From an uncultured Solirubrobacteraceae bacterium (GTDB taxonomy: Bacteria > Actinomycetota > Thermoleophilia > Solirubrobacterales > Solirubrobacteraceae): a stretch of DNA of 64,000 bases. The notes under the pieces were generated by a model. The model was given only the letters and a program-made list of their open reading frames with translations, was not told the DNA's origin and did not search any database. Within the stretch, counting starts at the first letter, position 1, and each line of letters begins with the position of its first letter. Both the position numbers and the translations under genes were made by a program. The DNA lies in the NCBI GenBank assembly GCA_964588985.1, contig CAZPQW010000005.1:64001-128000 (forward strand), written 5' to 3'. Positions 5,427 to 45,668 of this stretch are shown piece after piece.

Positions 5427-5434
5427 TGGACTCA

Positions 5435-10683: not shown

Positions 10684-10690
10684 TGCCTGG

Positions 10691-10717
10691 TAATCGGACG
10701 AGCGGTTGCGTTCTTTA
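10691..10717 (-). promoter_or_regulatory. Sigma-28-type promoter of fliJ operon
   Basis: TAAA-N15-TCCGATTA, 7 nt before GTG. Confidence 0.7.
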
Positions 10718-10738
10718 GCCGCGCGGGGAAGGCGCGTC

Positions 10739-29714: not shown

Positions 29715-31163
29715 TCAGACCAGCTCGAGCAGTGGGAAGGCGCGGTTGCGCCTCGGCGGCACGAGGAAGTTCTGGCGGCGTGTGGCGGTGATGAAGCGCT
29801 CGATGCCGAGGTTCTGCGCGGGGACGTTGTACCGCTGCGCCAGGTCGACCGAGGCCTGGCTGCGACGCATCGTCGCGAAGAAGTCCGCGGTCGGGACGAA
29901 GATGCCGAAGTGCAGCTTCGGCTGCGAGGAGCCGTCGGGCACGTCGAGCGAGTCGAAGCCCGGGCCGTCCGCGCGGATGTGCATCGGCGTGCGGTCGTGC
30001 GCCCGGCTGGAGCGCTGCAGCGCGACCGTGTGGCCGATGTGCGGCTGTCCGTCGAAGTTGCTCGCGCCTTCGGCTTCGCGTTCGGCCGCTTCGGGGCTCA
30101 CCGCCGCGTTTGCAATCGATGTCGGACCACCGCCGCCGGTGAACTGGTCGGCGTTACCGCGTCTGGGGACGGGATTGGCGCTGAACATCTCGGCCGCACG
30201 GCGCACGTACGTTTCGCCCGGACGTTCGTAGAACTGCTGGAGGTCCTGGATCAGATGCGACAGGTGCATCACCGAGCCGTGGTTGAAGTAGTCGTGCGAC
30301 CGCGCGGTGGTGAGCTTGGCCGAGCCGTTGCCGAGAAACGTCACTATCGGCGGCGGGCCGCTGCTGCCGACCTGCTGTGAGATGAAGCCCATCCACATCG
30401 GCGAGAGCGGGTTGATCGTCGCGGCGTACGGCAGCGTGTGTTCTTCGGCGAGCCTGCGCGGCAGGCCCTGCTGCACGAACATCAGCCGCCGCGAGCTGAC
30501 GCGCAGGAGGCCGCCCAGACCCGAGCTTCCGCCCTGGACGCCCGCGAGCGTGGAGCTTTCGCCAGCCAGCCAGCTGAGCGCTTCGTCGATCACAGCGGTG
30601 GAGTCGCTGCGAAGCATCAGCACCATGTCGTTGGACTCGATCCGCACGGGCACGTCGAAGCGGAGCTTCTGCACCGCGGGGTTCACTGGCGAGACGTCGG
30701 TTGGGCCTGGGACGGCCTCCTCGAAGGCATAGCGCTGCGGTTCGGCTGCCAGGCGCGGCATGTGCGCGGAGACGAGCGCGCCACTCATTCCGCCGGGCAG
30801 GCGTTCGAAGTACGGCACGCCGTAGGCGATCGTCATGAACACGCCGCTCGGGCTGAAGGGGTAGCTCGCCTCGACCTTGGCCAGGGCCGCCGCCAGCGCC
30901 GCCTGGTCTGAGAGCGTCGGCGTTCGCGTCAGTTCCACCGTGGCGAACGTCGTGTACGTCGGCCCGAAGCGGACCTTCACGCCTTCGATCGAAACCGCGT
31001 GCGGGAGGTACTTTTCGATCTGGAACTGGACTTCCGGCAGGCCCGACTTGGTCGCCGCGCCAGCGCGCTGCGGGACCCACGCCAGCAGATCCAGCGCACT
31101 CATCGTGGAGGCGGCCACGCCCAGCCCCACCGCACGCTGCATCAGGGTTCGCCGCGTGATCAC
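29715..31163 (-). CDS. Tat-exported protein, DyP-peroxidase-like (DUF7405-like)
   Basis: TRRTLMQ twin-arginine signal; PMWMGF, MHLSHL, GHTVALQR, RRQNFLVPPR motifs. Confidence 0.6.
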   Translation of the reverse strand: MITRRTLMQRAVGLGVAASTMSALDLLAWVPQRAGAATKSGLPEVQFQIEKYLPHAVSIEGVKVRFGPTYTTFATVELTRTPTLSDQAALAAALAKVEASYPFSPSGVFMTIAYGVPYFERLPGGMSGALVSAHMPRLAAEPQRYAFEEAVPGPTDVSPVNPAVQKLRFDVPVRIESNDMVLMLRSDSTAVIDEALSWLAGESSTLAGVQGGSSGLGGLLRVSSRRLMFVQQGLPRRLAEEHTLPYAATINPLSPMWMGFISQQVGSSGPPPIVTFLGNGSAKLTTARSHDYFNHGSVMHLSHLIQDLQQFYERPGETYVRRAAEMFSANPVPRRGNADQFTGGGGPTSIANAAVSPEAAEREAEGASNFDGQPHIGHTVALQRSSRAHDRTPMHIRADGPGFDSLDVPDGSSQPKLHFGIFVPTADFFATMRRSQASVDLAQRYNVPAQNLGIERFITATRRQNFLVPPRRNRAFPLLELV

Positions 31164-31190: not shown

Positions 31191-32534
31191 TCAGGTCAAT
31201 TGATGTGCAAGCTCGCGGAAGCGCTCCCCCCGCTCCTCGAAGTTGACGAAGAAGTCATAGCTTGGGGCCGCCGGCGAGAGCAGCACGACGCCACCGCCCT
31301 GCGCCAGCCCACGCGCCAGCTCGACCGCCTCGGCGAGATCGGACGCTTCGACTGCCCGCTCCTGCTCCGCCCCAGCCTCGCGAGCGGATGCGATGAGCCG
31401 CGGGCCCGTCGACGGCACCCCGATCACCGTGGCCCCGCGCTCGGCGAGCGCCCGCCCGAGCCCGGCGTAGTCCTGCCCCCTGTCCTGCCCACCGCCGATC
31501 AGCACCACGTCGCGTCCCGGAAAGCTGGCGAGCGCCGCGAGCGCGGACTCGGGCGTGGTGGAGATCGAGTCGTCCACCCACGTGACACCGTCGCGCTCCA
31601 GCACCGTCTCGAGTCGATGCGCGAGCGGACGGAAGTCGGCTAGCGCGTGCGACAGATCGGCAGGGAGCTCGACGCCGAGCGCCTCCAGCGCCGTCAGCGC
31701 CGCACACAGGTTCAGTGCGTTGTGCTCGCCGTGCAGCGGCAGATCGGCGCGCGCGAACTTCGACTCGCCGTGGAGAGTGATCCCACCATCGGCCGGCTCC
31801 CAGCCGCCGGGCACGCCGAACACCTCCACCTCGATGTCCGGATGGGCGCGCGCGATCCGCTCCTCGCGCTCGCCGACGACGGCCACGCGCACCCCGGGCA
31901 GTCCGAGGATCCGCAGCTTGTCCGCGCGGTAGGCGTCCTCGGAGCCGTGCCAGTCGGTGTGCTCGCGAAAGAGGTTCGTGATCACGGCCACCTCGGGTCC
32001 GGTGCTCAGATCGGCGAGCTGGTAGCTGGACAGCTCGACCACGGTCACCTCCGCGACGTCCTCGTCGAGCAGGTCGAGTGCGGGGACGCCGATGTTGCCC
32101 GCGAGCTGCACCGTCCGCCCCGCGGCGCGAGCCACGTGCGCGGCGAGCGCGGCGGTGGTGCTCTTGCCCTTCGTGCCCGTCACCCCGATCACGCCATCGC
32201 CGCCGCGCTCGGCCAGCCACAGCGCGGTGGCGGTCGTCACGGGCAGACCGGCATCGCGCAGCGCGATCAGCTCCGGCCGGTAGATCGACACGCCGGGCGA
32301 GCGCACGAGCACGTCGCAACCCGCGAGCGCAGCCGACGCCTCCCCGCTGCTCACCACCTGCACGGCCGGGGTGCGGAGCGTCTCGCCCACGTCCTGCAGG
32401 GGAGGCTCGTCGAAGACCGCGACCGCTATCCGCGCCGACGGCAGGCACTTGGCGAGCTGCGCGGCGAGCGATGTGATCTCCCGTCCGGCGCCCCACACGC
32501 CGATGCGGGCGCCGTCAAGCTCCGAGAACCGCAC
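31191..32534 (-). CDS. murD: UDP-MurNAc-L-Ala--glutamate ligase (MurD2 type)
   Basis: VRSPGVS, GVTGTKGKSTT, ELSSYQ, DDSISTTPES, LLSPAAPSYD; coupled to murL. Confidence 0.9.
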   Translation of the reverse strand: MRFSELDGARIGVWGAGREITSLAAQLAKCLPSARIAVAVFDEPPLQDVGETLRTPAVQVVSSGEASAALAGCDVLVRSPGVSIYRPELIALRDAGLPVTTATALWLAERGGDGVIGVTGTKGKSTTAALAAHVARAAGRTVQLAGNIGVPALDLLDEDVAEVTVVELSSYQLADLSTGPEVAVITNLFREHTDWHGSEDAYRADKLRILGLPGVRVAVVGEREERIARAHPDIEVEVFGVPGGWEPADGGITLHGESKFARADLPLHGEHNALNLCAALTALEALGVELPADLSHALADFRPLAHRLETVLERDGVTWVDDSISTTPESALAALASFPGRDVVLIGGGQDRGQDYAGLGRALAERGATVIGVPSTGPRLIASAREAGAEQERAVEASDLAEAVELARGLAQGGGVVLLSPAAPSYDFFVNFEERGERFRELAHQLT

Positions 32535-33888
32535 GCACGTCCGCCATCAGAGAAGCCGGCACCTCATGGTTGTCGCTCAGCGCGAGCACCGCCTCCGGGT
32601 CGCCCTCGCCGGGCGCGTATCGCGGCAGCACCTCCTCCACGAGACGCCGCACGACCGCGTGCGCGCTCCAGCGCTCGTCGCGTGCGAGCAGGCGGATCGC
32701 GGCGAGGCTCTCCTGCTCCTCGCCGACGCACTCGAACGGCTTGTGCCCGCCGGTCGCGGTGAGCAGCGCGAAGCCGTCGAACTGCCGCTCGTCGTCCAGC
32801 AGATCGCTCCCGAAGATCTCGCGCAGATGCTCGGGCGTGGAGAACGGCGCGAGCGCGAGGAACACGAACCGGCACTTGGGGCAGTCGCGGCACCACGACG
32901 CCGCGCGCAGCGCCGGGTCGAGCCGGAAGATCGCGTTGCAGCTGGTGAACGCCGCGTGGTAGGCGTCCATGCGCGCGAACGCGCGCGCGATCGCGAGCTC
33001 CGAGGCGGGGCGCAGCAGCGAGAACACCCGGAGTCCCGGCGCCACCTCGGCGACGGCCGCGCTCAGCAGCCGCTCGGCGCGCAGGCCCTTGCTGAACTGG
33101 TGGTTGACGTCCACGCCGTCCCAGCTCACGTTGCCGGCGGAGGCGGAGCGCTCGTTGGCCATCGCCACCGCGTCGAACCCGTTCAGCGCGGCGCTCAGCA
33201 GCGCCACGCACGACACGATCGCGGTGATCGGCACGTGACCGTTGATCGCGCCAGCGTCGTTGAGCGCCCTCAGCCCCGGGTCCAGGCGACGGCGCGCGAG
33301 CAGGTGAGGAAGCCCCGCCACCGCGACCGTGCGCGCGATCGGAGGTGCGTCGCCGATCGAGAACAGCGCCGGCTCGCGCCCGGAGCGGCGGGCGATCTCG
33401 ATCGCCACCGCGGAGTCCTTGCCACCGCCAACCGGCACGAGCATCCGCCCCACGTCCTCATTTTCAGGAGCGACAGGCACATAGCGACTCCCGTCCGCCC
33501 GAAAGCGCGGTCGCGGCAGCGCCGCCAGGTTGTTCGTGTACGCCAGCTCGCCGAGGCCCTCCGAGTAGAGCGCTTCGAGCAGGGCGCCCGTCGCGGGTGG
33601 CGGCGCGCCCGTCTCGAGGCTCACGCTCGTCGGCAGCGCGGTCTTGAAGTAGCTCACCCCGGCGACCCAGTGCAGCAGCGACAGCAGCCCGTCCACGCGC
33701 TCGACGTCGGCGTCGGTCAGCTCGCCGTCGATCGGCAGGTCGAACTCCTCCACGAAGAAGATCTCCTCGTCGAGCGCGTAGCGGAGCGTGACGCGTCCAC
33801 GCGCGTCGAGCTCGCGTGCAAGGAAGCGAAACGCTCCAAACGCCGTCGGGTCGAACAGCGCGGGGGCACGCTTGGCGTCGGCTGCCAT
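32515..33888 (-). CDS. murL: UDP-MurNAc-L-Ala-L-Glu epimerase MurL
   Basis: VSYFKT, PVGGGKDS (PP-loop), NGHVPIT, ANERSAS, VNHQFSK, WCRDCPKCRFVFL, KPFECVGE; leaderless TACGCT-N6-ATG start. Confidence 0.82.
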   Translation of the reverse strand: MAADAKRAPALFDPTAFGAFRFLARELDARGRVTLRYALDEEIFFVEEFDLPIDGELTDADVERVDGLLSLLHWVAGVSYFKTALPTSVSLETGAPPPATGALLEALYSEGLGELAYTNNLAALPRPRFRADGSRYVPVAPENEDVGRMLVPVGGGKDSAVAIEIARRSGREPALFSIGDAPPIARTVAVAGLPHLLARRRLDPGLRALNDAGAINGHVPITAIVSCVALLSAALNGFDAVAMANERSASAGNVSWDGVDVNHQFSKGLRAERLLSAAVAEVAPGLRVFSLLRPASELAIARAFARMDAYHAAFTSCNAIFRLDPALRAASWCRDCPKCRFVFLALAPFSTPEHLREIFGSDLLDDERQFDGFALLTATGGHKPFECVGEEQESLAAIRLLARDERWSAHAVVRRLVEEVLPRYAPGEGDPEAVLALSDNHEVPASLMADVRAVLGA

Positions 33889-33923
33889 GCCCCCAGCGTA
33901 GAGCGAGCTTCGGCCGCGCGTAC

Positions 33924-34535
33924 CTATGCGTACTCGAGATCGGGCTCGGGCTCGCCCGTGAACAGCCACGGCACGGCGTTGCCGATCACCTGACCGCGGA
34001 AGCGCTTGCGCGCCCCGTACACCACCCACGTCGTGTCCACCGCGCCGTAGGTCTCCTCCACGCGCAGCACGTCCGGGTATTCGCTCGCATAGTGCAGGTG
34101 GGTGAGGCCGGCGTGGTACTCGCCGGCGAGCAGGTGGCGCGCGACGACCGGCTTGGAGGGCTCGTCGATCAGCTCCTCCCAGCGGGTCAGGTCGGGGTAT
34201 CCGCGCGTCGCCGCCACGATCCCCATGCTCCTCGGGGGATCCGGCGCGTCGTGGCGGACGAGCAGCGCGAGCTCCTTGGTGGGGTAGATGAACGTGTCGA
34301 TCACGAACACCTCTTTGTAGTAGCGCTCGGTGACGAGGTGGACCTGCGTGTGCGCGCTGCACTGCACGAGGAACGTGTCGGGCTCGTCGCGCACGCGATG
34401 GATGTCGCCGAGCAGGTCTTCCGAGAGCTCGATCCGCACCGACGTCAGGCCCTGCAGCTCGAGGTAGCGCTTCAGCGCGTTCTCGTGACAGGTGCCCGTC
34501 GGCCCCAGCGTGATGAACGTCGGCTGCGCGCTCAT
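33924..34535 (-). CDS. BacA/AerD-like prephenate decarboxylase (prephenate dehydratase fold, no ACT domain)
   Basis: TLGPTGT start, ARHLLAGEYHAGLTH, TTWVVYG; 203 aa, similar in size and layout to Bacillus BacA as recalled. Confidence 0.65.
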   Translation of the reverse strand: MSAQPTFITLGPTGTCHENALKRYLELQGLTSVRIELSEDLLGDIHRVRDEPDTFLVQCSAHTQVHLVTERYYKEVFVIDTFIYPTKELALLVRHDAPDPPRSMGIVAATRGYPDLTRWEELIDEPSKPVVARHLLAGEYHAGLTHLHYASEYPDVLRVEETYGAVDTTWVVYGARKRFRGQVIGNAVPWLFTGEPEPDLEYA

Positions 34536-34822
34536 CGCTCCTCCGCGATCGCCGCCATCAGCTCGTCCTCCATCCTGCAGGTGGCATCGATCAGCAGCTC
34601 GAACAGCGCAGCGGTGAAGTCCGCCGGGAGCCTCACCTCCGCGCCGCGATCGAGATAGCGCGCACGGACCTGCTCGACGCGGCCGGGCTGCATCATCGGG
34701 ATGTCGTTCGCGCGCTTGTGGAGGGCTATCTCGCGGCAAGTCTCGAAGCGCTCGCCGAGCAACCGCACGATCTCCTCGTCGAGCTCGTCGAGGCGCGCGC
34801 GAAATGGCTCGAGGCCGCTCAT
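34532..34822 (-). CDS. AroQ chorismate mutase, PapB/CmlD (4-amino-4-deoxychorismate mutase) type
   Basis: RARLDELD...HKRANDIPMMQPGRV...LIDATCRMED. Confidence 0.8.
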   Translation of the reverse strand: MSGLEPFRARLDELDEEIVRLLGERFETCREIALHKRANDIPMMQPGRVEQVRARYLDRGAEVRLPADFTAALFELLIDATCRMEDELMAAIAEER

Positions 34823-35781
34823 TCGTCGCGCCCTCCGAGCAGGCCGGTCGCGAACGCGTGACTGCACGCGGCGAGCGTGTCGAGGTCGTAGCCGCCCTCC
34901 TGCACCACGCACACCGGCAGCTGCGAGTCGGCCAGCAGACGTCCGATCTCCGCGAAGATCGCCGGGCTGAACGTCCAGCAGCCATGCGGATCTCCACGCA
35001 CCGTGTCGTAGCCGAGCGACAGCACGAGCACGGCCGCGGACTGCGCGATCTCGTCGATCGACGCCGCCGCGGCGGCGAGGTAGCTGGCTTCGCTCGGAGC
35101 CTCGGCGAAGGCGACAAGCCGCTCGCGAGAGCTCAGCGGCTCGACCGTTCCCGTCGGCGAGTTCGCCACCGGCGAGGCGTGCAGCGAGTGCAGGCTCGTG
35201 TCGCTCATCAGCGCGGCGATCGCGGCGGTGCCGTTCGGGTAGTGGATGTCGAGGTCGAGGATCCCGATCGGTCCGACGCCCCCCTCGCGCAGCGTCTGCA
35301 CGGCGGCGGCGGCGTTGTTGAGGTAGCAGTAGCCGCCGAGCCAGCCCGGGCCGGCGTGATGTCCCGGCGGGCGACACAGCGCGTAGGCGTAGTGCGAGCC
35401 GTCGAGGATCCGGCGCGCGGCCGTGATCGCCGTGCGCACTCCCTCATACGCCACCGCCGCCACGCCCGCGCTCACGGGCGTGTCCGGGGCCATGCCGGGA
35501 GCGGCGAAGCGCTCCATCAGCACCGGCTCGCCCGAGCGGACGCGCATAAGCGCCTCGAGGTAGTCGCGCTCGTGCAGCGCGCTCACCGTCTGGCGCACCT
35601 GCTCGAAGGCCGCGTCGGCCTGGGCGGTCAGAACACCCGGATGCTGCGTCAGGCCAGCGCGCAGCTCCGACAGCCGCCTGTCGTGATCGCGGCCCTCGAG
35701 CCTGCGCCCGTGCGCGTCGAGGATCCACGGCTGGGCGTGCGCCGAGCCCGGACGTTGCTCGATCGCGAGCATCTCGCTCAT
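34819..35781 (-). CDS. Histone-deacetylase / acetylpolyamine amidohydrolase family enzyme
   Basis: RPPGHHA, GGYCYLNNAA, DLDIHYPNGT, SLGYD, QEGGY. Confidence 0.88.
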   Translation of the reverse strand: MSEMLAIEQRPGSAHAQPWILDAHGRRLEGRDHDRRLSELRAGLTQHPGVLTAQADAAFEQVRQTVSALHERDYLEALMRVRSGEPVLMERFAAPGMAPDTPVSAGVAAVAYEGVRTAITAARRILDGSHYAYALCRPPGHHAGPGWLGGYCYLNNAAAAVQTLREGGVGPIGILDLDIHYPNGTAAIAALMSDTSLHSLHASPVANSPTGTVEPLSSRERLVAFAEAPSEASYLAAAAASIDEIAQSAAVLVLSLGYDTVRGDPHGCWTFSPAIFAEIGRLLADSQLPVCVVQEGGYDLDTLAACSHAFATGLLGGRDE

Positions 35782-36293
35782 GGGATCCGCCTGCGCATGC
35801 GCGGACCGTTTGCCGTGAAGCCGTTGCTCAGGTAGAAGCCCTCGGTCGCGGAGAAGTTCGAGAAGCTCTCGCGCGGAAGCCCCACCTCGATGCGTTCCAT
35901 GTGTCGGCCGCGCGTGAGCTCGACGAGCGCCTCCACCAGTCCCGCCCCGACCGCCTGCCCGCGCCAGGCTGGATCGACCCACAGGTCCTGGATCAGCGCA
36001 TAGGACCCCGGCACGTGGATCGCCATCTGCCAGCTCGCCGCGAGCACGCCCACGATCGCCACACGCGCCTGCGCCACGAGCACCGCGCCCTCCCAGGGGC
36101 TTGCGATCAGCGTGCGCGTCGCATCCTCCATCGCCGCGGTGCTCGTCGGCGTCCCATCGAGCTCCAGCAGCAGGGCCCTCACCGCACCGGCGACCGCCTC
36201 GACGTCGTCGCCGGTGGCGGCGCGCACGCTCCATCCGAGACTCGAAGCCGCATCCGAAGCGGACGCCTGCACCTCGGCGGCGTGCTCACTCAT
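35778..36293 (-). CDS. GNAT family N-acyltransferase
   Basis: IQDLWVDPAWRGQAVGAGLV motif A, FYLSNGF; ATGA overlaps at both ends. Confidence 0.85.
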   Translation of the reverse strand: MSEHAAEVQASASDAASSLGWSVRAATGDDVEAVAGAVRALLLELDGTPTSTAAMEDATRTLIASPWEGAVLVAQARVAIVGVLAASWQMAIHVPGSYALIQDLWVDPAWRGQAVGAGLVEALVELTRGRHMERIEVGLPRESFSNFSATEGFYLSNGFTANGPRMRRRIP

Positions 36294-38470
36294 AACGCTC
36301 CCGCGGCCGCCATGTGCGAGTGCGGCTCGCGCTCCACGACCCACGCGTCGGGGGAGTCGCTGCCGGTCACCGCTCGCGCGACCGCCGCCATCGGCGCGCG
36401 CGCCTTCAGCAGCAGCTCCTCGAACTCCTGCTCGGGGTCGGACTGGGTGACGATCGCGCCGCCAGCACCGATCGTCGTCAGGCCGGGGCGCATCACGATC
36501 GTGCGGATCACGATGCTCAGGTCGACGCTCCCGTCGAGCCCGAAGTAGCCGAGCCCGCCCGAGTACACGCCGCGGGCGACGCGCTCGATGTCGTCGATGA
36601 TCTCCATAGTGCGCAGCTTCGGCGCTCCGGTCATCGAGCCGCCGGGGAAGCACGCGCGCACGCAGTCCACCGGCGTGCGCCCCTCGGAGAGCACGCCGTT
36701 GATCGTGGACGTCATCTGGTGCACCGTGCGGTAGCGCTCGCCGGCCATGAACTCCGACACGCGCACGCTGTCCACCTCGCACACGCGGCCGAGGTCGTTG
36801 CGCAGCAGGTCCACGATCATGAGGTGCTCGGCGAACGTCTTTTCGTCGTTCATCAGCTCGGTGCGCAGCGCCTCGTCGACGACGGCGTCGCTCGCGCGCG
36901 GCGCGGTGCCCTTGATCGGACGCGCCTGCACGTTGCGGTCGCGGTCGACCGACAGGAAGCGCTCGGGCGAGGAGCTGACGACGGCCATCTCCCCGAGCTT
37001 GAGGTAGGCGGCGAACGGCGCGGCGTTGCTGCGACGCAGTCCGCAGTAGAGCTCGAGCGGGTCGGGGCTCGCGGCCGTGGAGATGTGGTCGGTGAGACAC
37101 ACCTCGTAGGACTCGCCCGCCGCGAGCGCCGCCTGACAGCGCGCGATGTCGGCGAGATACTGGCGGCGTCCGCGGCCGCAGTGGAACACGACGGGCGCGC
37201 CCGCATCGTCCCCGTCGGTGGCGCCGGACTCCGGCGTCGATCCGTCATCCTCCCGCTGCTGAGACGCCGAGGAGATCATCTCGCTCACGATCGCCTCGGT
37301 CTCCACGAGCCAGCGCTCCGCGTCGTGCCCGTCCTCCGCGCACAGCGCGAACAGGTGCGTGCGCCCGGCGACGTGATCCACCGCGATCACGCGATTGGCG
37401 AGCATCATCACCGCGTCCGGCATGTCCGAGCGGTGGACGTTGGGTGAGCCGCAGTCGGCCTTGCACTCGTAACCGAGATAGCCGACGAAACCGCCGAGCA
37501 AGCCGCGCGCCACACCCTCCGGCGGCTGCACAGCGCCGAGCGCGAGTTCGCGGTCGAGCACGTCGAAGATCGAGGCGTGCTCCACGACGCTCGTGCCGGC
37601 GCGATCGATCGTCACCGAGGCGGACTCCACGTCGTATTCGAGCACGCAGCGCTCCTCGCCCATCGTCGTGCCCATGTAGGAGCTGCGCGCGAGGCGCGTC
37701 GGCGCGTCGGCGCTGTCGAGCCAGAAGGCGTGATCGGCGTCGGCGAACAGGCGTCGGAAGACCGCCTCGGTCGGAGCCTCGCCCTCGATCGTGCGCACCT
37801 TCAGGCGCATCCGCGAGTCGCCCACGTGGCGAACGGTCGGCCGCGCGGAGGGCGTCACGAGCCGCCTCACTCCGGGCGAGCGAGTCGGCCTGTTCGCACG
37901 CGCCATCTTGTAGAAGTTCTCGATCAGCGCGGGGCCGTGCTCGGTCGAGATCGACTCGGGGTGGAACTGCACGCCCCAGATCGGCCGGTGGCGATGCTCG
38001 ATGCCCATCACCACGCCGTCCTCCGTCCATGCCGTCACGCGTCCCTCCGGTCCCATCTGGCCGGTTACCGCGAGCGAGTGGTAGCGCACGACCGAGAAGT
38101 CCTGGGGAATCCCCTCGAACAGGCCGCTGCCGAGATGGCGCACGTGACTCACGCGGCCGTGCATCGGCAGCGGCGCCGCCCCAACCTCACCGTTGAGCAG
38201 CCGGCCGAGCCCCTGATGGCCGAGGCAGATCCCGAGGATCGGCACGTCGCTGAAGCGCAGGATGTCCGAGCACACGCCGAAGTCGTGCCAGCGATCGGGG
38301 TGCCCTGGGCCGGGGGAGATGACGATCGCGTCGAAGTCCCAGCGCGACAGCGCTCCCCACGAGACGGTGTCGTTCTGGATCACGATCGGCTCCTCGCCCG
38401 ACACGGCGGCGAGGATGTGAAACACGTTGTACGTATAGGAGTCGTAGTTGTCCACCAGCAGCGTTGTCAT
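36290..38470 (-). CDS. pabAB: Fused PabA-PabB aminodeoxychorismate synthase (PapA/CmlB type)
   Basis: DNYDSYTYN, SPGPG, GICLGHQ, QFHPES; then SSPERF, PIKGT, EHLMIVDLLRNDL, FPGGSMTGAPK. Confidence 0.93.
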   Translation of the reverse strand: MTTLLVDNYDSYTYNVFHILAAVSGEEPIVIQNDTVSWGALSRWDFDAIVISPGPGHPDRWHDFGVCSDILRFSDVPILGICLGHQGLGRLLNGEVGAAPLPMHGRVSHVRHLGSGLFEGIPQDFSVVRYHSLAVTGQMGPEGRVTAWTEDGVVMGIEHRHRPIWGVQFHPESISTEHGPALIENFYKMARANRPTRSPGVRRLVTPSARPTVRHVGDSRMRLKVRTIEGEAPTEAVFRRLFADADHAFWLDSADAPTRLARSSYMGTTMGEERCVLEYDVESASVTIDRAGTSVVEHASIFDVLDRELALGAVQPPEGVARGLLGGFVGYLGYECKADCGSPNVHRSDMPDAVMMLANRVIAVDHVAGRTHLFALCAEDGHDAERWLVETEAIVSEMISSASQQREDDGSTPESGATDGDDAGAPVVFHCGRGRRQYLADIARCQAALAAGESYEVCLTDHISTAASPDPLELYCGLRRSNAAPFAAYLKLGEMAVVSSSPERFLSVDRDRNVQARPIKGTAPRASDAVVDEALRTELMNDEKTFAEHLMIVDLLRNDLGRVCEVDSVRVSEFMAGERYRTVHQMTSTINGVLSEGRTPVDCVRACFPGGSMTGAPKLRTMEIIDDIERVARGVYSGGLGYFGLDGSVDLSIVIRTIVMRPGLTTIGAGGAIVTQSDPEQEFEELLLKARAPMAAVARAVTGSDSPDAWVVEREPHSHMAAAGAL

Positions 38471-40140
38471 GAGACCTCCTCCAGGCCGATTCCGCGCGCG
38501 CCGCGGTCGAGCAGCGTGTGCACCACCTGCTCCACCGGAGCGCTGCGCTCCTCCTCCAGGTACCAGCGAGCGAAGTGCGTCACGTAGCGGGCGAGCGGGC
38601 CGGCGTCGAGGCGCTCGACCGCGAGGCGCAGATGGCGGCGGTGCAGTTCCGCCTGCACGACCGCGAAGCGGTAATCCGGTTCCTCCGCCGGCCGATCCGC
38701 CAGCTCGTGCCCGCGACCCTCGTGCGCGCGCGCCTGCACCAGCTCCCACCCCGGGCTTTCGCGTGTGTCCAGCAGCTTGCCGGGATGGAAGTCCACGCGC
38801 GGGGTCACCGGGCGCGGCACGAAGTAGCCCAACGCCACCTGACCCGCGATCCGCTCCGCCGAGCCGAGCCGGCGCACGACGTCCTGCCCGCGCGGGTCCT
38901 GCTCGATCTGCTCCTGCAGCCGCTCGATCAGGTCGTCGATCAGCAGCGCCCCCTCCTCGCTCGAGGCGACCGCGCGCTTCTGGTGGGAGACCATCCCGTG
39001 GAAGATGTCGCCGGTCGGATGCATGCCTTCGCCGCCGGTGCTCATCAGGCGCGCCATCAGCTGGCGTCTGCAGGTGACGTGTGCGACCCACTCCGCACCG
39101 CACACCTGTACCGAGGTCATGCCCTCCAGGCCCGGCGCCGCCATCCAGTACGCGAGCGCGCGCATGTGCTGGGTGGGCAGATCGTCGCCGCGCACGAGCG
39201 GGAATTCGTCGAAGTCCTCGCGCTCGGTTGGGTAGATCACCACGCCGTCCTCGCGCCGGCGCAGCAGCCCTTCGCGCAGGCCGCACGCGGTCAGCTCGGC
39301 CGCCTCGGAGAGGAAGTCCGACTCGAAGAACACGCGGTCGAAGGCGATTCCCAGCCGCTGCAGCGTCTTGCGCTGCCCCGCGATCACCCACGCGCGCGTC
39401 TTGTACCAGAGCTCCAGCGCCTCGCGGTCCCCGGAGAGCACTCGCCGCAGCAGCTGGTCGGCGTCGTCGTCGCGCATCGTCAGCTCGCGCGTGAGGGAGT
39501 CCTCGGGCTGCTCGGTGGAGCCACCGTTGAAGGATCGGCCCGCCGCGACGTACTCGGCGTAGCAGCAGCCCACGAAGTGGTCGCTCTTCTCGTTGCGGTC
39601 CGGCCACGCCTGCGCGTGGCGGCCGCTCTTCATCACCCCGGCCATCGCCTCGCCCATGCTGCGCCCGGCGTCTGAGATCAGCGCGCGGCGCTCGACCTGG
39701 CCGCCGGCCTGGGTCAGGGCCGCGGCGAGCGCGTTGCCGATCGCGAGGTTGCGCAGGTGCCCGACGTGCAGCGCCTTGGTCGCGTTGGCGTCCCAGAACT
39801 GCACCGAGAAGCGTCGCCCGCGCGCGAGGTCGGAGAGCCGCTCCTCGCCGCTGTCGCCTTCCCGCAGCGCGGTCCCCTGAGTTTCGATCCAGTCGTCTGA
39901 CAGCCGCAGCTCCACGCCCGCGTCGGTGCGCGTCGCGCGCTCTACCCACGGCTCGCGTTCGATCCGCTCGAGCGCGTCGAGCGATGCCGCGTCATCGCGC
40001 CAGACGGGTGAACGTGGGACGAGCTTGACGTCGAAGCGGGCGTTCGGACGCAGCGGCGTGCGGGCAGCCCACAGTCCGCCCGTCTCGCCCTGCTCGGGCA
40101 GTTCCTCGAAGTAGTCGAAAAGGTTGGTGGCCGTCAGCAT
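38467..40140 (-). CDS. Arginyl-tRNA synthetase paralogue with altered specificity residues
   Basis: NATKALHVGHLRN (HIGH), FDRVFFES, HGMV, shortened DALR-like domain; KMSKS loop degenerate, no C-terminal Met. Confidence 0.85.
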   Translation of the reverse strand: MLTATNLFDYFEELPEQGETGGLWAARTPLRPNARFDVKLVPRSPVWRDDAASLDALERIEREPWVERATRTDAGVELRLSDDWIETQGTALREGDSGEERLSDLARGRRFSVQFWDANATKALHVGHLRNLAIGNALAAALTQAGGQVERRALISDAGRSMGEAMAGVMKSGRHAQAWPDRNEKSDHFVGCCYAEYVAAGRSFNGGSTEQPEDSLTRELTMRDDDADQLLRRVLSGDREALELWYKTRAWVIAGQRKTLQRLGIAFDRVFFESDFLSEAAELTACGLREGLLRRREDGVVIYPTEREDFDEFPLVRGDDLPTQHMRALAYWMAAPGLEGMTSVQVCGAEWVAHVTCRRQLMARLMSTGGEGMHPTGDIFHGMVSHQKRAVASSEEGALLIDDLIERLQEQIEQDPRGQDVVRRLGSAERIAGQVALGYFVPRPVTPRVDFHPGKLLDTRESPGWELVQARAHEGRGHELADRPAEEPDYRFAVVQAELHRRHLRLAVERLDAGPLARYVTHFARWYLEEERSAPVEQVVHTLLDRGARGIGLEEVS

Positions 40141-40148
40141 CTTGGTGA

Positions 40149-40168
40149 GGTCGGCGGTGGAGCCGACC
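40149..40168 (-). other. 7-bp hairpin between tRNA 3' end and synthetase start
   Basis: GGTCGGC-tccacc-GCCGACC, no U-tract. Confidence 0.55.
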
Positions 40169-40170
40169 GA

Positions 40171-40243
40171 TGCACCAGCCGGGGCTCGAACCCGGATCGA
40201 CGGCGTTTAAGGCCGCTCCCTTAACCGATTAGGGCACTGGTGC
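40171..40243 (-). tRNA. Atypical tRNA, anticodon UAA, short (4-nt) variable loop
   Basis: GCACCAG-TG-CCCT-AATCGGTTA-AGGG-A-GCGGC-CTTAAAC-GCCGT-CGAT-CCGGG-TTCGAGC-CCCGG-CTGGTGC-A: all four stems pair; U8, A14, G18G19, U33, TTCGA present; CCA not encoded. Confidence 0.9.
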
Positions 40244-40245
40244 TC

Positions 40246-40295
40246 AAAACCCGACAGCAACCAGCCGAGCTTCCGGTTTGGTTTGCGTAGTCGGG
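40246..40295 (-). promoter_or_regulatory. Imperfect hairpin plus U-tract in tRNA leader (terminator/attenuator-like)
   Basis: CCCGAC..GCAAACCA..CCG/CGG..TGGTTGC..GTCGGG followed by TTTT, 2 nt before the tRNA. Confidence 0.45.
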
Positions 40296-40389
40296 CTGCG
40301 GGGAGCACCATAAGGCTCGTCGTGGAGAACCGCACACTTCGAAAAACACCGGTAGGACAAGCCTCCAATACACAGGCAGGAAGGCCATT

Positions 40390-41817
40390 TTGAGCATGCA
40401 CGAGGAGCAGCACATGTCTCTGTCTCTCCCCCCTGGCCCACGCATGCCGAGCGCGCTTCAGGCGCTCGGCTGGGCGCTGCGACCGCTGCCGTTCATGGAG
40501 CGCTGCAACAACCATTACGGTGAAATCTTCACCCTGCGCGTTCGTCGCGGTCGTCCCTGGGTTGTCCTCACGGATCCGGCGGATGTCAAGCTGCTGTTCA
40601 CGACCGACGCGAGCGCGGTGCGCGCGGGAGCGGTCGCGGCCAGCCCGGTACTCGAGCCGCTGCTGGGCTCACGGTCGGTGATGCTGCTCGACGAGCCCGA
40701 GCACATGACACACCGCAAGCTGATGCTGCCCGCGTTCCGCATCACGCGCATGAGCGCCTATGACAACCTGATCACCCGCGTGGCCCGTCGAGAGATCTCG
40801 AAGTGGCCGATCGGCGAGCCGTTCGCGCTGTGGCCGCGCATGCAGGCGATCACCACAGAGGTGATCCTCCGCGCCGTGTTCGGCCCTCTGGAGGAGCCCC
40901 GGTTGGAGCATCTGAGCGGCCTGCTGAGACAGATGACCGCGCAGCTGAACGATCCGCGCCGCCTGGCGATCCTGACCGCCGTGGGCCCGGGGCGACTCTC
41001 TCACAGCGAGCGACTTCGCTCGGTGATGCGCCCGGTGGAGAGCGCGGTGCTCGAGGAGGTGCGCCGACGGCGTGCTTCACCCAACGGCGCAGCCTCGCAG
41101 GACATCCTCGCGATGCTCGAGCGCGCACACGACCAGGGTGGCTCGCCGATGGACGAGAAGCAGGTGCGCGACGAAGTCCTCACACTGCTCTCCGACGGTC
41201 CGACCGCCACCTCGCTCGCGTGGGCATTCGAGTGCCTCATGCGCCATCCCGAGAAGCTCGCCCGACTGCGCAAGGAGGCCCTCGCGGGTCGCGAGTACAG
41301 CTATGCGGACGCGGTCGCCAAGGAGACGCTGCGCCTGTGCCCGGTGGTGCCCCTGGTGATGCGCGAGCTGACCCAGCCGATGCGCATCCGCGGCTACACG
41401 CTGCCCGCGGGAGTCATCGTCGCCGCGGGCGTTTACCTGATTCACCGTCGCGAGGACATCTATCCGCAATCGCGCACTTTCCTACCTGAGCGCTTCCTCG
41501 ACCAGAACGCCCCCACCTACGCGTGGATTCCCTTCGGCGGAGGAGTGAGACGCTGCCTCGCGGCCAACTTCGCCCAGCTCACGATCAGGCGAGTGATGCA
41601 GACCGTGCTCACCGAGGTGGACCTGCAGGCGGTCTCCACATCCGGATCCGAGCACGCGGCGAGAAGCTCAGTCGCGTTCGTCCCCAACGAGCAGGCGATG
41701 GCGATCGTCACTCGACGGATCGGATCTCCCACCGACGAGCGGCTCGAGGATCCGGTCGGCGACGAGACCGAGCGAGCCGAGGGTCGAGAATCCGGGGCCC
41801 TGGCCGAGGCCGGCTAG
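40390..41817 (+). CDS. Cytochrome P450 with non-canonical I-helix
   Basis: PPGP, KETLR (ExxR), PERF, PFGGGVRRCLA heme ligand; I-helix LLSDGPTATSLAW; start may be a later ATG (MSLSLPPGP). Confidence 0.9.
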   Translation: MSMHEEQHMSLSLPPGPRMPSALQALGWALRPLPFMERCNNHYGEIFTLRVRRGRPWVVLTDPADVKLLFTTDASAVRAGAVAASPVLEPLLGSRSVMLLDEPEHMTHRKLMLPAFRITRMSAYDNLITRVARREISKWPIGEPFALWPRMQAITTEVILRAVFGPLEEPRLEHLSGLLRQMTAQLNDPRRLAILTAVGPGRLSHSERLRSVMRPVESAVLEEVRRRRASPNGAASQDILAMLERAHDQGGSPMDEKQVRDEVLTLLSDGPTATSLAWAFECLMRHPEKLARLRKEALAGREYSYADAVAKETLRLCPVVPLVMRELTQPMRIRGYTLPAGVIVAAGVYLIHRREDIYPQSRTFLPERFLDQNAPTYAWIPFGGGVRRCLAANFAQLTIRRVMQTVLTEVDLQAVSTSGSEHAARSSVAFVPNEQAMAIVTRRIGSPTDERLEDPVGDETERAEGRESGALAEAG

Positions 41818-43014
41818 CCCGGGCACCTGCAGCAGCGGGCGCACGCCGCTGAGCTCCAGGAATCGAGCCATGTTCACTTCTTCGCGTTTGTCGCCTTCCC
41901 AAAGCGGCCCGGTCACCCGTTCGATCTCGCGCCGCGCCGGATCGGACAGCAGACTGCGCAGCTGCTCGAGCAGATCGAAGCCGGTCGAGTTGATCACGTA
42001 GTCGTGGCGCGCCGTCTCGGCGCCCGCGACCGACTCGTAGTTGACGCACACCCCCTCGCCGTTCGGAGCGGACGCGATGCGCTCGACGCGCCCGAGCACG
42101 AAGCGACAGCGCTCGTCCCACGCGAAGCGCGCGAGACGCTCCGGCCCGAATACTCCGCGATCGGTGTGATTGATGAAGTCGCGACGCGTATCGACGCTGA
42201 GCGTCTCCCAGGCGACATTGTCGGGATTGGAGAAGACGCGATTCTCCAAGAAGCTCTCCAGCCGACTCAGAGGCAGATTGGAGGTGTACACCGATATGTA
42301 CGCGTCGGGACGCAGGTTGCGCACGAATTCGATGCAGCTGAGCGCGCTCTCCCCGCCACCCACGATCGCGATGTCGGAGCTCTGCTCGACCGGCGCGTGC
42401 GCGATCGCGATGCGCCCGCTGTCGCAGTCGAGCACGCGCTGCGCGATCTGGGGATCATGGGGGATGCCGCGATTGACCCCGGGGCCGGTCAGCGCGAACG
42501 CCCCGCACGCGTACTGGGACGCGGCGGGCGCACCGGCGACGTCCACGATCCAGCGTTCGCCGTCGTCGCTCAGCGACAGTCGTGCGACACGCCCGTTGAC
42601 GAGCGTCACTCCCTCGGTGGCGCGAGTGAGCACCCACGCAAGGTATGCGCCGTATTCGCGGCGCTGCACGGACGGTTCGCCGGCGTCCACCCAGCGTGAG
42701 TAGTCGCCTTTCTCGATCAGGTAGCGATGCCAGGAGAACGCCATCGACGCGATGTCCACTTCCGCTCCGGCGGAGCCGAACGCGCATGCGCTCTGGTACG
42801 GGTAGCCGACGTCTTTGGAGGGGGTGATCGCGAGCACCTCCCTGCTCGTGGTGATGCCGTTTCCGTCGACCCACGCGGCCGCCGGCCCGGTCGCCTCGAC
42901 GAGCGTCATCCTGATCGGACCCAGGCCGAGACTGTTGAGCACGTGCACCTTCATCGCGATCGCGGTGCCCTTGGCTCCGGCGCCGACGACGAGCAGGTCG
43001 GTGTTGTTCACCAC
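41668..43014 (-). CDS. MbtG/NbtG-like flavin-dependent lysine N6-monooxygenase
   Basis: VVGAGAKG, KDVGYPY, VGGGES, ENRVFSNP, TDRGVF, GLGQGPGFSTLGSLGLVADRIL; GTG start behind GGAGG. Confidence 0.85.
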   Translation of the reverse strand: MVNNTDLLVVGAGAKGTAIAMKVHVLNSLGLGPIRMTLVEATGPAAAWVDGNGITTSREVLAITPSKDVGYPYQSACAFGSAGAEVDIASMAFSWHRYLIEKGDYSRWVDAGEPSVQRREYGAYLAWVLTRATEGVTLVNGRVARLSLSDDGERWIVDVAGAPAASQYACGAFALTGPGVNRGIPHDPQIAQRVLDCDSGRIAIAHAPVEQSSDIAIVGGGESALSCIEFVRNLRPDAYISVYTSNLPLSRLESFLENRVFSNPDNVAWETLSVDTRRDFINHTDRGVFGPERLARFAWDERCRFVLGRVERIASAPNGEGVCVNYESVAGAETARHDYVINSTGFDLLEQLRSLLSDPARREIERVTGPLWEGDKREEVNMARFLELSGVRPLLQVPGLAGLGQGPGFSTLGSLGLVADRILEPLVGGRSDPSSDDRHRLLVGDERD

Positions 43015-43093
43015 GTCGCAGATCCTCCGGTCGAAGCTTGTCGTGCTCTCGTGCAAACGGCACGCCGAGTTATAGGGAGAAGGGCGACGTGGC

Positions 43094-43672
43094 TCAATGT
43101 GAGACCGGAACGCTCCCCCCGCAGGTCGGGCAAACCACCGTGTTCGCGTCGGCATCCGGCGTGGACGGATCGCTCCCGTCGTTTCCATCACCGGCTTTGA
43201 GCGCACGGCGGCGGCCGCGCAGTTCCGCGCGGAGGTCCGCGACCGACAGTTTGTCGGCGCTCGCTCGCGCCAGCCAGTGGTCCTGGATCGCGACATCCAG
43301 CGCCGCGACCGTCGCGTGGTGACTCCAGGAGAGATTCTCCCTACGTCGGGAGATGTCGAAGCGCGACGCGACGTACACCATGTTCATCAGGGATTGGACG
43401 TCGTATCCGGTGAGCTTCACCGCTCTCGTGTAGCGCTCGCCGAAGCGCGCGTTGCCGTAGTTGATCCAGTCGCCCAGCCACCATTGGCTGCAGCGACCGA
43501 TCTCGCCGAAGCGACGCCCCAACGCCGACCACTCGGCCAGGCCGACCTCGCCGCCGGGAACCCAGCCCACCTGTGTCAGCTCTGGAGTAGTCCGCGCCGG
43601 CCTCACATGAGGTCGTTCACGCGCAGTCGCTTGCCCGGCACCGTCTGTCGTCTGTGACAAGGCGGAAGTCAC
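43094..43672 (-). CDS. LmbU family transcriptional regulator
   Basis: SQWWLGDWINYG, YVASRFDISRRRENLSWSHHATVA, QDHWLARA. Confidence 0.85.
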   Translation of the reverse strand: MTSALSQTTDGAGQATARERPHVRPARTTPELTQVGWVPGGEVGLAEWSALGRRFGEIGRCSQWWLGDWINYGNARFGERYTRAVKLTGYDVQSLMNMVYVASRFDISRRRENLSWSHHATVAALDVAIQDHWLARASADKLSVADLRAELRGRRRALKAGDGNDGSDPSTPDADANTVVCPTCGGSVPVSH

Positions 43673-43864: not shown

Positions 43865-45166
43865 TCAGTCGTTCGCGGTGACGGTCTCGAGCAGCTCCGC
43901 GAAGCGCTCACGCGAGCGCGCGCGGCGCGTCGGCAGGTGTTCGCTCGGCACACCGTCCGCGGGTGGCGCGTAGCCGTTGAGGATGTGGCGCGCGACGGAC
44001 TGGCGGTGCACCTCGTCGGGACCGTCGTAGATGCGCGCGGCGCGCGCGAAACGATACATCTGCTCGAGCGGCAGGTCGGTGGAGTAGCCGAGCGAGCCGT
44101 GCAACTGCAGCGCCCGATCGACCACGTCGTGGAGCACCTTCGCGCCGTAGAACTTGATCAGCGCGACGTCGGTGCGCGCGGCGCTCGCGCCCTGTGTGTC
44201 CATCACCCACGCGGCGTGCAGCGTCATCAGGCGTGCGGCCTGCATCTCGGCGGCGCTGTCGGCGATCCAGTTCTGCACGGTCTGCTTCTGCGCGAGCAGC
44301 GAGCCGTGGGCTTCTCTATATGTGGCGCGCTCGCACATCATGTCGAACGCGCGGCGCGCGACCCCGAGCCAGCGCATGCAGTGGTGGATGCGCCCGGGCC
44401 CGAGGCGGTGCTGGGCGAGCACGAAGCCCTCGCCCTCGCCGCCGAGCAGCGCCTCCGGGCCGACGCGCACGTCGCTGTAGAGGATTTCCGAGTGCCCGCC
44501 GTAGCCGCCGAAGTGCTCCGCGGGGTGCTCCATCGTGGGGACGTCGCGCACGATGTCGACGCCCGGCATGTCACTCGGGACGATGAACATGGACGCGCGC
44601 TGCGACGGTCGCGCGTCGGGGTTGGTGACGGCCATCACGATCAGGAAGTCGGCGATCGAGCCGTTGGAGGAGAACCACTTCTTGCCGTCGAGCACCCAGC
44701 CGTCGCCGTCGCGCACCGCGCGCGTCTTCAGCTGCGTGGGGTCGGAGCCCGGCGTGTGCGGCTCGGTCATCGAGAACGCGCTGCGCAGGTCGCCCGCGAG
44801 CAGCGGGTGCAGCCAGCGGTCCTTCTGCTCGGGCGTGCCCGCCATAGCGAGGATCTCCGAGTTGCCGGAGTCCGGCGCGGCGTTGCCGAACGCGAGCGGC
44901 GCGATCGGCGAGGTGCCGAGGATCTCGTGCATCAGCCCGAGCTTCACCTGCCCCATCCCCTGGCCGCCGAGCTCGGGCGGCAGATGCGTCGCCCACAGCC
45001 CGCGCGCCTTGACCTGCTCCTGCAGCGGCGCGATCGCACGGCTGAGGCCATCGAGACCCAGCTCCGGCCAGATCGCCTCCAGCGGCCAGATCTCGGTGCG
45101 CACGAACTCCGCCATCCAGTCGAGCTGCTCCTGGTAGTCGGCGTCGGTGGAGAAGTCCCAGCTCAT
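43865..45166 (-). CDS. Acyl-CoA dehydrogenase
   Basis: APDSGNSEIL, SAFSMTEP, GKKWFSSN, RLGPGRIHHCMR, RIYDGPDEVH. Confidence 0.93.
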   Translation of the reverse strand: MSWDFSTDADYQEQLDWMAEFVRTEIWPLEAIWPELGLDGLSRAIAPLQEQVKARGLWATHLPPELGGQGMGQVKLGLMHEILGTSPIAPLAFGNAAPDSGNSEILAMAGTPEQKDRWLHPLLAGDLRSAFSMTEPHTPGSDPTQLKTRAVRDGDGWVLDGKKWFSSNGSIADFLIVMAVTNPDARPSQRASMFIVPSDMPGVDIVRDVPTMEHPAEHFGGYGGHSEILYSDVRVGPEALLGGEGEGFVLAQHRLGPGRIHHCMRWLGVARRAFDMMCERATYREAHGSLLAQKQTVQNWIADSAAEMQAARLMTLHAAWVMDTQGASAARTDVALIKFYGAKVLHDVVDRALQLHGSLGYSTDLPLEQMYRFARAARIYDGPDEVHRQSVARHILNGYAPPADGVPSEHLPTRRARSRERFAELLETVTAND

Positions 45167-45272
45167 GGCGTGGCGTCCTTTCGTTCGGGGCCTGGCGGTG
45201 CTGTGCCTGCAAGCGTACGTGCTATCAACCCAAGCGCAACGCTTTCCACCATCTCGAACAAGGAGCCGCCAC

Positions 45273-45668
45273 ATGAGCACCACCGAGCAGCTGGTCACGG
45301 GCGTCGACTTCGTCTCTGTACCCACCGGCGATCTCGCCGCCTCCGTCGAGTTCTACGGCGACACGTTGGGCCTGCGCCGCTCGGTGTACATGCCCGACCG
45401 CAACTTCGCGGAGTTCGAGACCGGCAACCTCACACTGAGTGTCGTTCACGCGGAGAAGATGGGGATCCCGCACTGCGTGAACCAGAACGCGATCGCGCTG
45501 CACGTCGACGACGTCGAAGCGACCCGCGCGACGCTCGAAGCACGCGGCGTGAGCTTCCAGGGAGACACGTTCGACACGAGCGTCTGCCACATGGCGTTCT
45601 TCACCGACCCCTACGGCAACGCGCTGATGCTCCACCACCGCTACGCACCGCGCAACCCCGAGTCCTAG
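45273..45668 (+). CDS. VOC/glyoxalase family protein
   Basis: SVEFYGDTLGL, LHVDDVE, FFTDPYGNALMLH; AAGGAG SD. Confidence 0.9.
   Translation: MSTTEQLVTGVDFVSVPTGDLAASVEFYGDTLGLRRSVYMPDRNFAEFETGNLTLSVVHAEKMGIPHCVNQNAIALHVDDVEATRATLEARGVSFQGDTFDTSVCHMAFFTDPYGNALMLHHRYAPRNPES

Follow-up and report, generated by a model that had tools for sequence, protein, structure and literature searches.

Known tRNA-synthetase cassettes and the solirubrobacterial locus

Aminoacyl-tRNA synthetase paralogues that have taken on new jobs are already known, as is one natural cassette that joins a tRNA, its synthetase and amino-acid biosynthesis, namely that of pyrrolysine. In this cassette, pylTSBCD, a private tRNA, a dedicated synthetase and the amino-acid genes are co-located and patchily distributed. 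Here we describe a locus that shares these features, in a 64,000-nt stretch of DNA (the window; positions 64,001 to 128,000 of contig CAZPQW010000005.1, assembly GCA_964588985.1) from an uncultured Solirubrobacteraceae bacterium. The open reading frame (ORF) at 38467..40140 on the minus strand encodes, from an ATG start, a 557-residue paralogue of arginyl-tRNA synthetase (ArgRS) with a rebuilt amino-acid pocket, in which HVGH (125-128) and the HIGH-loop lysine K122 are kept; a private tRNA gene lies 30 nt upstream. We propose that the paralogue no longer uses arginine or tRNA-Arg and instead forms a self-contained pair with this tRNA inside an accessory operon. We give about an even chance to the fuller reading, that this ArgRS-derived ligase charges the private tRNA with an amino acid derived from 4-amino-4-deoxyprephenate, for use in specialised metabolism.

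The pyrrolysine system differs in having a class II synthetase, a stop-codon anticodon and proven ribosomal use; here the enzyme is an ArgRS derivative, the sense anticodons vary between lineages, and tailoring enzymes of secondary metabolism are present. The PapABC enzymes of chloramphenicol and pristinamycin biosynthesis resemble the operon in combining a fused PabAB-type 4-amino-4-deoxychorismate (ADC) synthase with a type II chorismate mutase. However, the operon has neither a PapC-type dehydrogenase nor a non-ribosomal peptide synthetase, and features a candidate BacA-like decarboxylase, a GNAT/deacetylase pair and the tRNA/synthetase pair. The parent enzyme is represented by canonical ArgRS of the T. 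thermophilus and yeast type (PDB 1iq0, 1bs2/1f7u). Like it, the paralogue is of class Ia and has a HIGH motif, a HIGH-loop lysine instead of the KMSK lysine, and a layout of N-terminal, catalytic and C-terminal helical parts, and it matches the yeast protein over nearly its full length. Unlike it, the paralogue has four of the five arginine-pocket positions replaced, has lost the GPGF(I/V)N motif and the C-terminal Met, has terminal domains with no Pfam match, accompanies a tRNA with U20 and a non-Arg anticodon, and is encoded in an accessory operon.

Other relevant systems combine some of these traits. As described in the available text of two sources, ProRSx/tRNA-ProX of Streptomyces and Kitasatospora likewise features an adjacent tRNA that keeps its parent's body under a foreign, lineage-variable anticodon, AGU included; ProRSx is proline-specific and comes without biosynthesis genes, in contrast to the rebuilt pocket and operon found here (PMC10404621, PMC9437257). 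Valanimycin VlmL/VlmA and the MetRS-like hydrazine synthetases, as far as the accessible part of their source describes them, also pair a synthetase or a synthetase relative with an amine N-hydroxylase in one cluster and use the aminoacyl group outside translation (10.1101/2025.08.22.671884). Unlike the enzyme proposed here, VlmL charges housekeeping tRNA-Ser with a standard amino acid and has no private tRNA, and the hydrazine synthetases are tRNA-independent, contain a cupin domain and also lack a private tRNA. Targeted searches of the full-text literature yielded no report of an ArgRS derivative with a rebuilt pocket and its own co-evolving tRNA in a biosynthetic operon, and the word ArgRS is absent from the available portion of a 2022 review of synthetase duplications (PMC9437257).

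The rebuilt pocket and its conservation

The third-position G+C content of the ORF is 0.91 in surrounding DNA of ~70% G+C, and it is therefore a real gene. It is a paralogue and not the housekeeping ArgRS, because the host genome (48 contigs, 96% complete) encodes a canonical enzyme on contig C4 that scores 390.1 bits on TIGR00456 argS (EC 6.1.1.19), against only 83.9 bits for the paralogue, below the curated cut-off of 261.65. The canonical enzyme matches Pfam Arg_tRNA_synt_N, tRNA-synt_1d and DALR_1. The paralogue matches tRNA-synt_1d at residues 109-174 only (27.9 bits), and neither it nor four relatives, which match the same family alone, gave a Pfam match to Arg_tRNA_synt_N or DALR_1. The host ArgRS features MSK and lacks the HIGH-loop lysine, the opposite type to the paralogue, which is therefore not a recent copy of it.

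A first-pass annotation had proposed from a by-eye alignment that the paralogue has lost its arginine-binding and tRNA-Arg recognition residues. These motif claims were tested by hhalign of the family against the host ArgRS, by HMMER against PDB chains (phmmer with the protein and hmmsearch with the family profile; references T. thermophilus 1iq0 and yeast 1bs2) and by MAFFT. The family aligned with the host ArgRS at a probability of 97% (E 1.1e-10, 390 columns), and hmmsearch matched yeast ArgRS at E 1.1e-30, placing profile positions 102-557 against yeast residues 133-604. The alignments bear out nearly all of the proposed changes. The (D/E)xSxPN motif changes from VEFVSAN to VQFWDAN (yeast E148 to Q114 and S151 to D117, with N153 kept as N119), TYxxxDIA from YTYFAPDIAY to PTQHMRALAY (Y347 to Q324, D351 to A328), and GAEQ, which is GADHH in the host and includes Q375 in yeast, to GAEW, with W351. 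The segment GPGFVNLF is replaced by DAGVELRL; we take the GPGF(I/V)N motif to be part of the A20-binding N-terminal domain. HMMER and MAFFT concur with the annotation in replacing QMSKRSG by AVASSEE, which contains no lysine; hhalign puts this stretch elsewhere, at low confidence. The protein ends in GLEEVS where the canonical enzyme has APEHM, so that the terminal Met is gone, and HVGH and the preceding Asn (N119) are kept, as claimed. The described shortening of the DALR domain stands only in part: measured from the KMSK position to the end, the region is just ~10 residues shorter (167 against 177), and what has been lost is the Pfam DALR_1 match present in the canonical enzyme.

Five yeast residues, E148, N153, Y347, D351 and Q375, are reportedly those that bind arginine (Cavarelli 1998). 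At the equivalent positions, Q114, N119, Q324, A328 and W351, only the Asn is kept. These alignments support the view that the pocket is not that of an arginine enzyme; neutral and aromatic in its predicted lining (Q, W, Q, H, A, W), it would suit an aniline or an N-acylated amine. The ATP-site signatures, in contrast, are retained in HVGH and K122, in agreement with the earlier view that adenylation probably persists. K122 aligns with the HIGH-loop lysine of the yeast (K156) and T. thermophilus enzymes, which likewise lack the KMSK lysine in these alignments. ArgRS of the T. thermophilus type is active without that lysine, and the role of its HIGH-loop lysine was reportedly the subject of work by Sekine in 2001. 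Loss of the KMSK lysine is thus no argument for a dead enzyme, since the yeast and T. thermophilus enzymes share both this loss and the HIGH-loop lysine; the paralogue has a HIGH motif (HVGH) together with a catalytic lysine at one of the two possible sites, the KMSK or the HIGH loop (K122).

Of 8,000 candidates scored in a word-index search, 2,308 proved to be relatives, and the best 120 of these are 65-97% identical to the paralogue, mostly unnamed or called ArgRS, and belong to Solirubrobacteraceae where named. An exhaustive search of 50%-identity representatives recovered 202 clusters at E <= 1e-30. Within a set of 96 orthologues (50-97% identity, from a tree of 107 rows), F115, W116, A118, N119, K122, H125, H128, T323, Q324, H325, M326, R327, W332, G348, E350 and W351 are invariant, as are HVGH as a whole and the GxE motif; Q114 (84 sequences), D117 (89) and A328 (80) are less fixed. 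Drift of a pseudo-enzyme, the outcome that would have undermined the first-pass annotation, is contradicted, because the pocket substitutions are fixed in 96/96 orthologues (W116, N119, K122, Q324, H325, R327, E350 and W351).

Ten more distant paralogues keep D117, N119, K122, the TxH motif, R327, E350 and W351 and vary at positions 114, 116, 118 and 328, with C116 in 9/10; in the alignment this variation looks like tuning of specificity. A distant paralogue in locus L087 is 36% identical and accompanied by a tRNA(UAA), a class IV aminotransferase, a mutase-VOC fusion and PabAB, and its W116 to G and A328 to Y exchanges may represent a complementary size swap. Four further loci (L085, L086, L088 and L114; 36-38% identical) feature an ArgRS-like gene after a private 74-nt tRNA(UCU) with U20. 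An ATP-grasp (L-amino-acid-ligase-like) gene follows in L085, the one locus of these whose neighbours were scanned, and in genome G476 a closer match to the housekeeping tRNA-Arg(UCU) was seen on another contig. In locus L089 a distant paralogue (9255-11012) adjoins the alpha and beta subunits of D-lysine 5,6-aminomutase, and ARAGORN finds no tRNA in the 20-kb stretch. A Conexibacteraceae chromosome (L039/L090) carries two paralogue copies ~6 kb apart, 67% and 64% identical to that of the window; its one private tRNA has anticodon AGU and diverges from the second copy, and a PQQ-type beta-propeller protein takes the place of the operon's protein F, described below.

The system is patchily distributed. 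Matches occur in 12 of 201 genomes of the same family, spread over 3 of 51 genera, and six of the 12 are of the operon type; in a phylum-wide sample of 401 genomes searched at E <= 1e-40, only the window's own genome matches. The system looks accessory and resembles a biosynthetic gene cluster.

The private tRNA and its anticodons

ARAGORN detects a single tRNA in the window, a 73-nt class-I tRNA at 40171..40243 on the minus strand (Rfam 65.2 bits) with anticodon UAA, U20, A73 and no encoded CCA; a 3' CCA is encoded in only 8/48 tRNA calls of this genome. It has no long variable arm, and the normal 87-nt tRNA-Leu(UAA) of the genome is found on contig C1. By alignment score the nearest of the genome's 48 tRNAs is tRNA-Arg(CCU), identical at 51/73 positions. 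A U follows G18G19 in the private tRNA, and an A in all four credible tRNA-Arg genes of the genome. Two 'tRNA-Arg(gcg)' calls (94 and 78 nt) and a 97-nt call with a ggag four-base anticodon, on contigs C4, C27 and C39, lack the usual D-loop and are probably false. The identity elements for ArgRS, in the available text of one source, are A20 and C35-U/G36 (PMC8975779); the private tRNA has U20 and anticodon UAA in their place. The first-pass annotation saw the changes in the enzyme mirrored in U20 and A35 of the tRNA. The former generalises, since U20 is kept in all 37 distinct cluster tRNA sequences that were aligned; A35 does not, as it is confined to the UAA lineage, and orthologous clusters with the same pocket carry G35 (UGU, AGU).

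Across these 37 sequences 98.3% of cloverleaf cells are paired and 10/21 pairs show both-sided changes, a level reached by none of 500 shuffles; the acceptor stem and T arm are almost invariant. Relatives are encoded in 247 genomes, from which 80 loci were fetched as the basis of all counts per 80 given here. In 43 loci the tRNA is directly upstream of the paralogue, and in 29 more it lies at another place in the cluster, frequently on the opposite strand, giving 72/80 in all. Seven of the eight tRNA-less loci are limited by their contigs (they lie at an edge, or the contig spans just 4-14 kb), leaving L052 as the only full-length locus of the 80 in which no tRNA was found. A cis-acting, T-box-style tRNA-like leader was considered and rejected, as in many loci the tRNA gene is on the opposite strand or kilobases away. 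So was a bldA-like regulatory tRNA-Leu, given the absence of a long variable arm and the existence of a normal tRNA-Leu(UAA). Between the tRNA 3' end and the start codon, the minimum free energy fold contains a perfect 7-bp hairpin (40149..40168, minus strand) with no T-run after it and nothing terminator-like at the site; a role in processing or in translation is conceivable. Scanning 38300-40500 for promoters and terminators gave no hits.

The anticodon differs between lineages. UAA is found in 68 genome loci, of which one has a loop of 8 nt, AGU in four Conexibacteraceae/Baekduia loci, and UGU in 16/25 metagenome paralogue loci, which show the same PabAB-GNAT-deacetylase-mutase operon wherever the sequence suffices. 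The distant paralogues adjoin private tRNAs in 7/12 loci, with anticodon UCU or CCU, or UAA in L087. A FastTree tree, which offers local supports only and in which long branches were flagged, requires at least six anticodon changes, with the AGU clade nested in the UAA clade, the UGU clades basal, and the paralogues with Arg anticodons outside. Residue 447 of the paralogue (window ~38800-38802) tracks the anticodon: most UAA-type proteins have Pro there, those with UGU, UCU or CCU have Lys, and the AGU clade has Arg, whereas L095 (UAA, Lys) and L087 (UAA, Glu) depart from this rule. This pattern, amounting to about two independent events, is a lead that the C-terminal domain may still read the anticodon.

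The operon, its chemistry and competing readings

Frame analysis shows that the tRNA and then the paralogue head a chain of minus-strand genes whose ends abut or overlap. Directly downstream of the paralogue, 36290..38455 encodes a fused glutamine amidotransferase/aminodeoxychorismate synthase of PabAB/PapA-like type (Pfam GATase and Chorismate_bind; start uncertain), present in 80/80 loci and scoring 339.3 bits on TIGR00553 pabB against a cut-off of 328.4. The genome has two further chorismate-binding enzymes, and the operon PabAB is therefore an extra copy. It is followed on the same strand by a small GNAT acyltransferase (35778..36293; Pfam Acetyltransf_7/_1; PDB 2r1i at 2.8e-6; 71/80 loci), an HDAC-family deacetylase closest to acetylpolyamine amidohydrolases (34819..35781; Pfam Hist_deacetyl; PDB 9gkz at 1.4e-32; 71/80) and a type II chorismate mutase, a PapB-like candidate (34532..34822; Pfam CM_2, 70.4 bits; 69/80). 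The last member, protein F (33924..34535, minus strand; 203 residues; 47/80), matched no Pfam or NCBIfam family and no PDB sequence; its ESM Atlas feature score of 0.96 to a 'Prephenate decarboxylase' cluster makes it a candidate BacA-like prephenate decarboxylase, as a lead only.

Upstream and divergent from the operon is a cytochrome P450 gene (40390..41817, plus strand; Pfam p450, 181 bits; start uncertain; 73/80 loci), then on the minus strand an NbtG-like flavin N-hydroxylating monooxygenase (41668..43296; L-Lys monooxygenase PDB 4d7e at 1.8e-63; 53/80) and an LmbU-family transcriptional regulator (43094..43672; NF038070, 122.5 bits against a cut-off of 125). The regulator overlaps the listed 5' end of the N-hydroxylase gene by ~200 nt, so one start is wrong, and the true N-hydroxylase start is probably further downstream. 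Three neighbouring regions were rejected as parts of the system: MurD2/MurL (31191-33969), which follow the operon in only 15-17/80 loci, DUF7405 (29715-31163), linked in only 1/80, and, as a core part, an acyl-CoA-dehydrogenase-like gene (43865-45325; 18/80). The first of these regions (minus strand) encodes a MurL-like epimerase (NF041275, 424 bits, cut-off 700) and a MurD-type ligase (TIGR01087, 313 bits), a pair that corresponds to the alternative, L-Glu-then-epimerise route to the peptidoglycan stem peptide. In locus L053 an ABC transporter (3991-6788; ATPase and ABC-2 permease) lies beside the private tRNA, P450 and N-hydroxylase.

The shared core of private tRNA, rebuilt ArgRS, ADC synthase and chorismate mutase points to a substrate derived from 4-amino-4-deoxyprephenate. 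In the pathway that we propose, PabAB would convert chorismate to 4-amino-4-deoxychorismate and the mutase would convert this to 4-amino-4-deoxyprephenate, from which later steps would yield a 4-amino-ring amino acid, either p-aminophenylalanine or a related compound that is N-modified or has not been aromatised; BacA-like enzymes, to which the decarboxylase lead points, are of a non-aromatising kind. Amino-acid activation by ArgRS requires bound tRNA. The paralogue would activate the amino-ring acid with ATP, probably under the same dependence, and esterify it to the private tRNA, and such a requirement would explain why a tRNA had to accompany the enzyme. We regard charging of the private tRNA as the most probable chemistry. 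The charged tRNA would then serve as donor or scaffold for the P450, N-hydroxylase and GNAT/deacetylase steps and not for general translation. The first-pass annotation had inferred a different substrate, likely non-basic or ring-containing. The non-arginine pocket agrees with the change of substrate, and a ring fits an ADC synthase and a chorismate mutase. That it is non-basic is less certain, since the GNAT, the acetylpolyamine-amidohydrolase-like enzyme and the NbtG-like N-hydroxylase are kinds that act on primary aliphatic amines. The hallmarks of a biosynthetic cluster are found in the P450, N-hydroxylase, LmbU-type regulator, patchy distribution and, in L053, an ABC exporter. Small-molecule use is favoured by the make-up of the cluster, the exporter in one variant, patchiness and TTA-free cluster genes, as well as by the way in which anticodons have switched to common Thr codons while the pocket stayed the same.

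Several observations weigh against this proposal. The pocket is assigned by alignment to yeast ArgRS and from the roles ascribed to its arginine-binding residues, so that its lining is a prediction, and the enzyme has no lysine in the KMSK loop. Protein F is assigned by a language-model lead only, no PapC-type or prephenate-dehydrogenase-like gene was seen in the cluster, and the hosts seen are metagenome-assembled genomes only. Moreover, Pfam and NCBIfam show no aminoacyl-tRNA consumer (Fem/VlmA/MprF-type, CDPS, LanB/PEARL or L/F-transferase) in the conserved core, which by default leaves the ribosome as a possible consumer; the small GNAT is the remaining candidate user of the aminoacyl-tRNA. 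In the tRNA itself the elbow is canonical, as is the 7-nt anticodon loop with its U33 and A37, and the anticodon is stable within large clades, as that of a decoding tRNA would be, although an anticodon read by the enzyme should be just as stable.

These last points bear on code expansion or programmed mistranslation, in which the ribosome would insert the operon's amino acid at UUA, or at ACA/ACG or ACU in other lineages, a reading that we regard as rather doubtful. In its favour, the order of tRNA, synthetase and biosynthesis genes parallels pylTSBCD, and UUA is the rarest sense codon of the genome (67/718,813 codons, in 2,159 ORFs picked by third-position G+C), ~10x below the next rarest; the canonical anticodon loop and the lack of a dedicated aminoacyl-tRNA-consuming enzyme recognised by Pfam or NCBIfam fit as well. 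There is also precedent, within the available text of the sources, for a synthetase paralogue and a tRNA of lineage-variable anticodon that decode on the ribosome (PMC10404621, PMC9437257). Against it, the canonical tRNA-Leu(UAA) coexists in the genome, the cluster genes contain no in-frame TTA codon, and same-pocket clusters with UGU or AGU would hit common Thr codons, ACG alone occurring 26 times per 1000 codons here. Compared with a pyrrolysine-type system, the locus thus shows co-location together with a competing decoder and no in-frame client codon in the cluster genes. Small-molecule biosynthesis is also what the P450, the N-hydroxylase, the LmbU-type regulator and, in one variant, the ABC exporter suggest. 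A little less probable again is the specific form in which the operon is a natural cassette for an extra encoded amino acid, a chorismate-derived 4-amino-ring acid that Solirubrobacterales would load onto an ArgRS-derived orthogonal pair and that would enter proteins at UUA, with sister lineages retargeted to Thr codons.

The tRNA might alternatively be an activating cofactor only, the adenylated acid being passed to a non-tRNA acceptor, e.g. the hydroxylamine made by the neighbouring N-hydroxylase; the system would then resemble the MetRS-like hydrazine synthetases or MshC. ArgRS activation needs tRNA, and the NbtG-like N-hydroxylase is linked in 53/80 loci, both in keeping with such a role. 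Relatives of class I synthetases are known that pass an aminoacyl group on to an N-hydroxy amine, and such N-N bond pathways draw on free amino acids and aminoacyl-tRNA as donors, according to the accessible part of one source (10.1101/2025.08.22.671884). We nevertheless consider this unlikely: Pfam and NCBIfam recognise no cupin partner, the N-hydroxylase was not found in 27/80 loci as searched, and the near-invariant acceptor stem and T arm, with a tRNA that is kept even when relocated, suggest more than a loose cofactor.

Continued use of arginine, whether by a self-resistance copy of ArgRS or by charging arginine onto a tRNA that reads a non-Arg codon, is very improbable. It would accord with the ArgRS ancestry, with the UCU or CCU Arg anticodons beside distant paralogues, and with the occurrence of resistance synthetase copies in biosynthetic clusters, of which SerRS2 is listed in the available text of a review (PMC9437257). 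Yet both guanidinium-binding carboxylate positions and the Tyr are replaced and fixed, the argS score is one third of the curated cut-off, and a resistance copy would have no need of its own tRNA without A20. A catalytically dead pseudo-synthetase acting as a tRNA-binding regulator or scaffold, suggested by the lost KMSK-loop lysine and the short Pfam catalytic-domain match, is scarcely credible, because a dead site would not hold HVGH, K122, GxE and a remodelled pocket across 96 orthologues, and T. thermophilus-type ArgRS is active without that lysine.

Overall, if the pair feeds small-molecule biosynthesis, as we propose, it would represent new tRNA-dependent natural-product chemistry, and the first with a dedicated carrier tRNA. 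If it feeds the ribosome, it would be a new natural expansion of the genetic code, and, should the operon be a cassette for an extra encoded amino acid, the 202-cluster paralogue family would be a reservoir of natural orthogonal pairs for unusual amino acids. In both cases the locus provides an existing pair, possibly orthogonal, of a synthetase class that code expansion has yet to draw on, and each of the more than 200 sequence clusters of the family may combine a private tRNA with an unusual amino acid.

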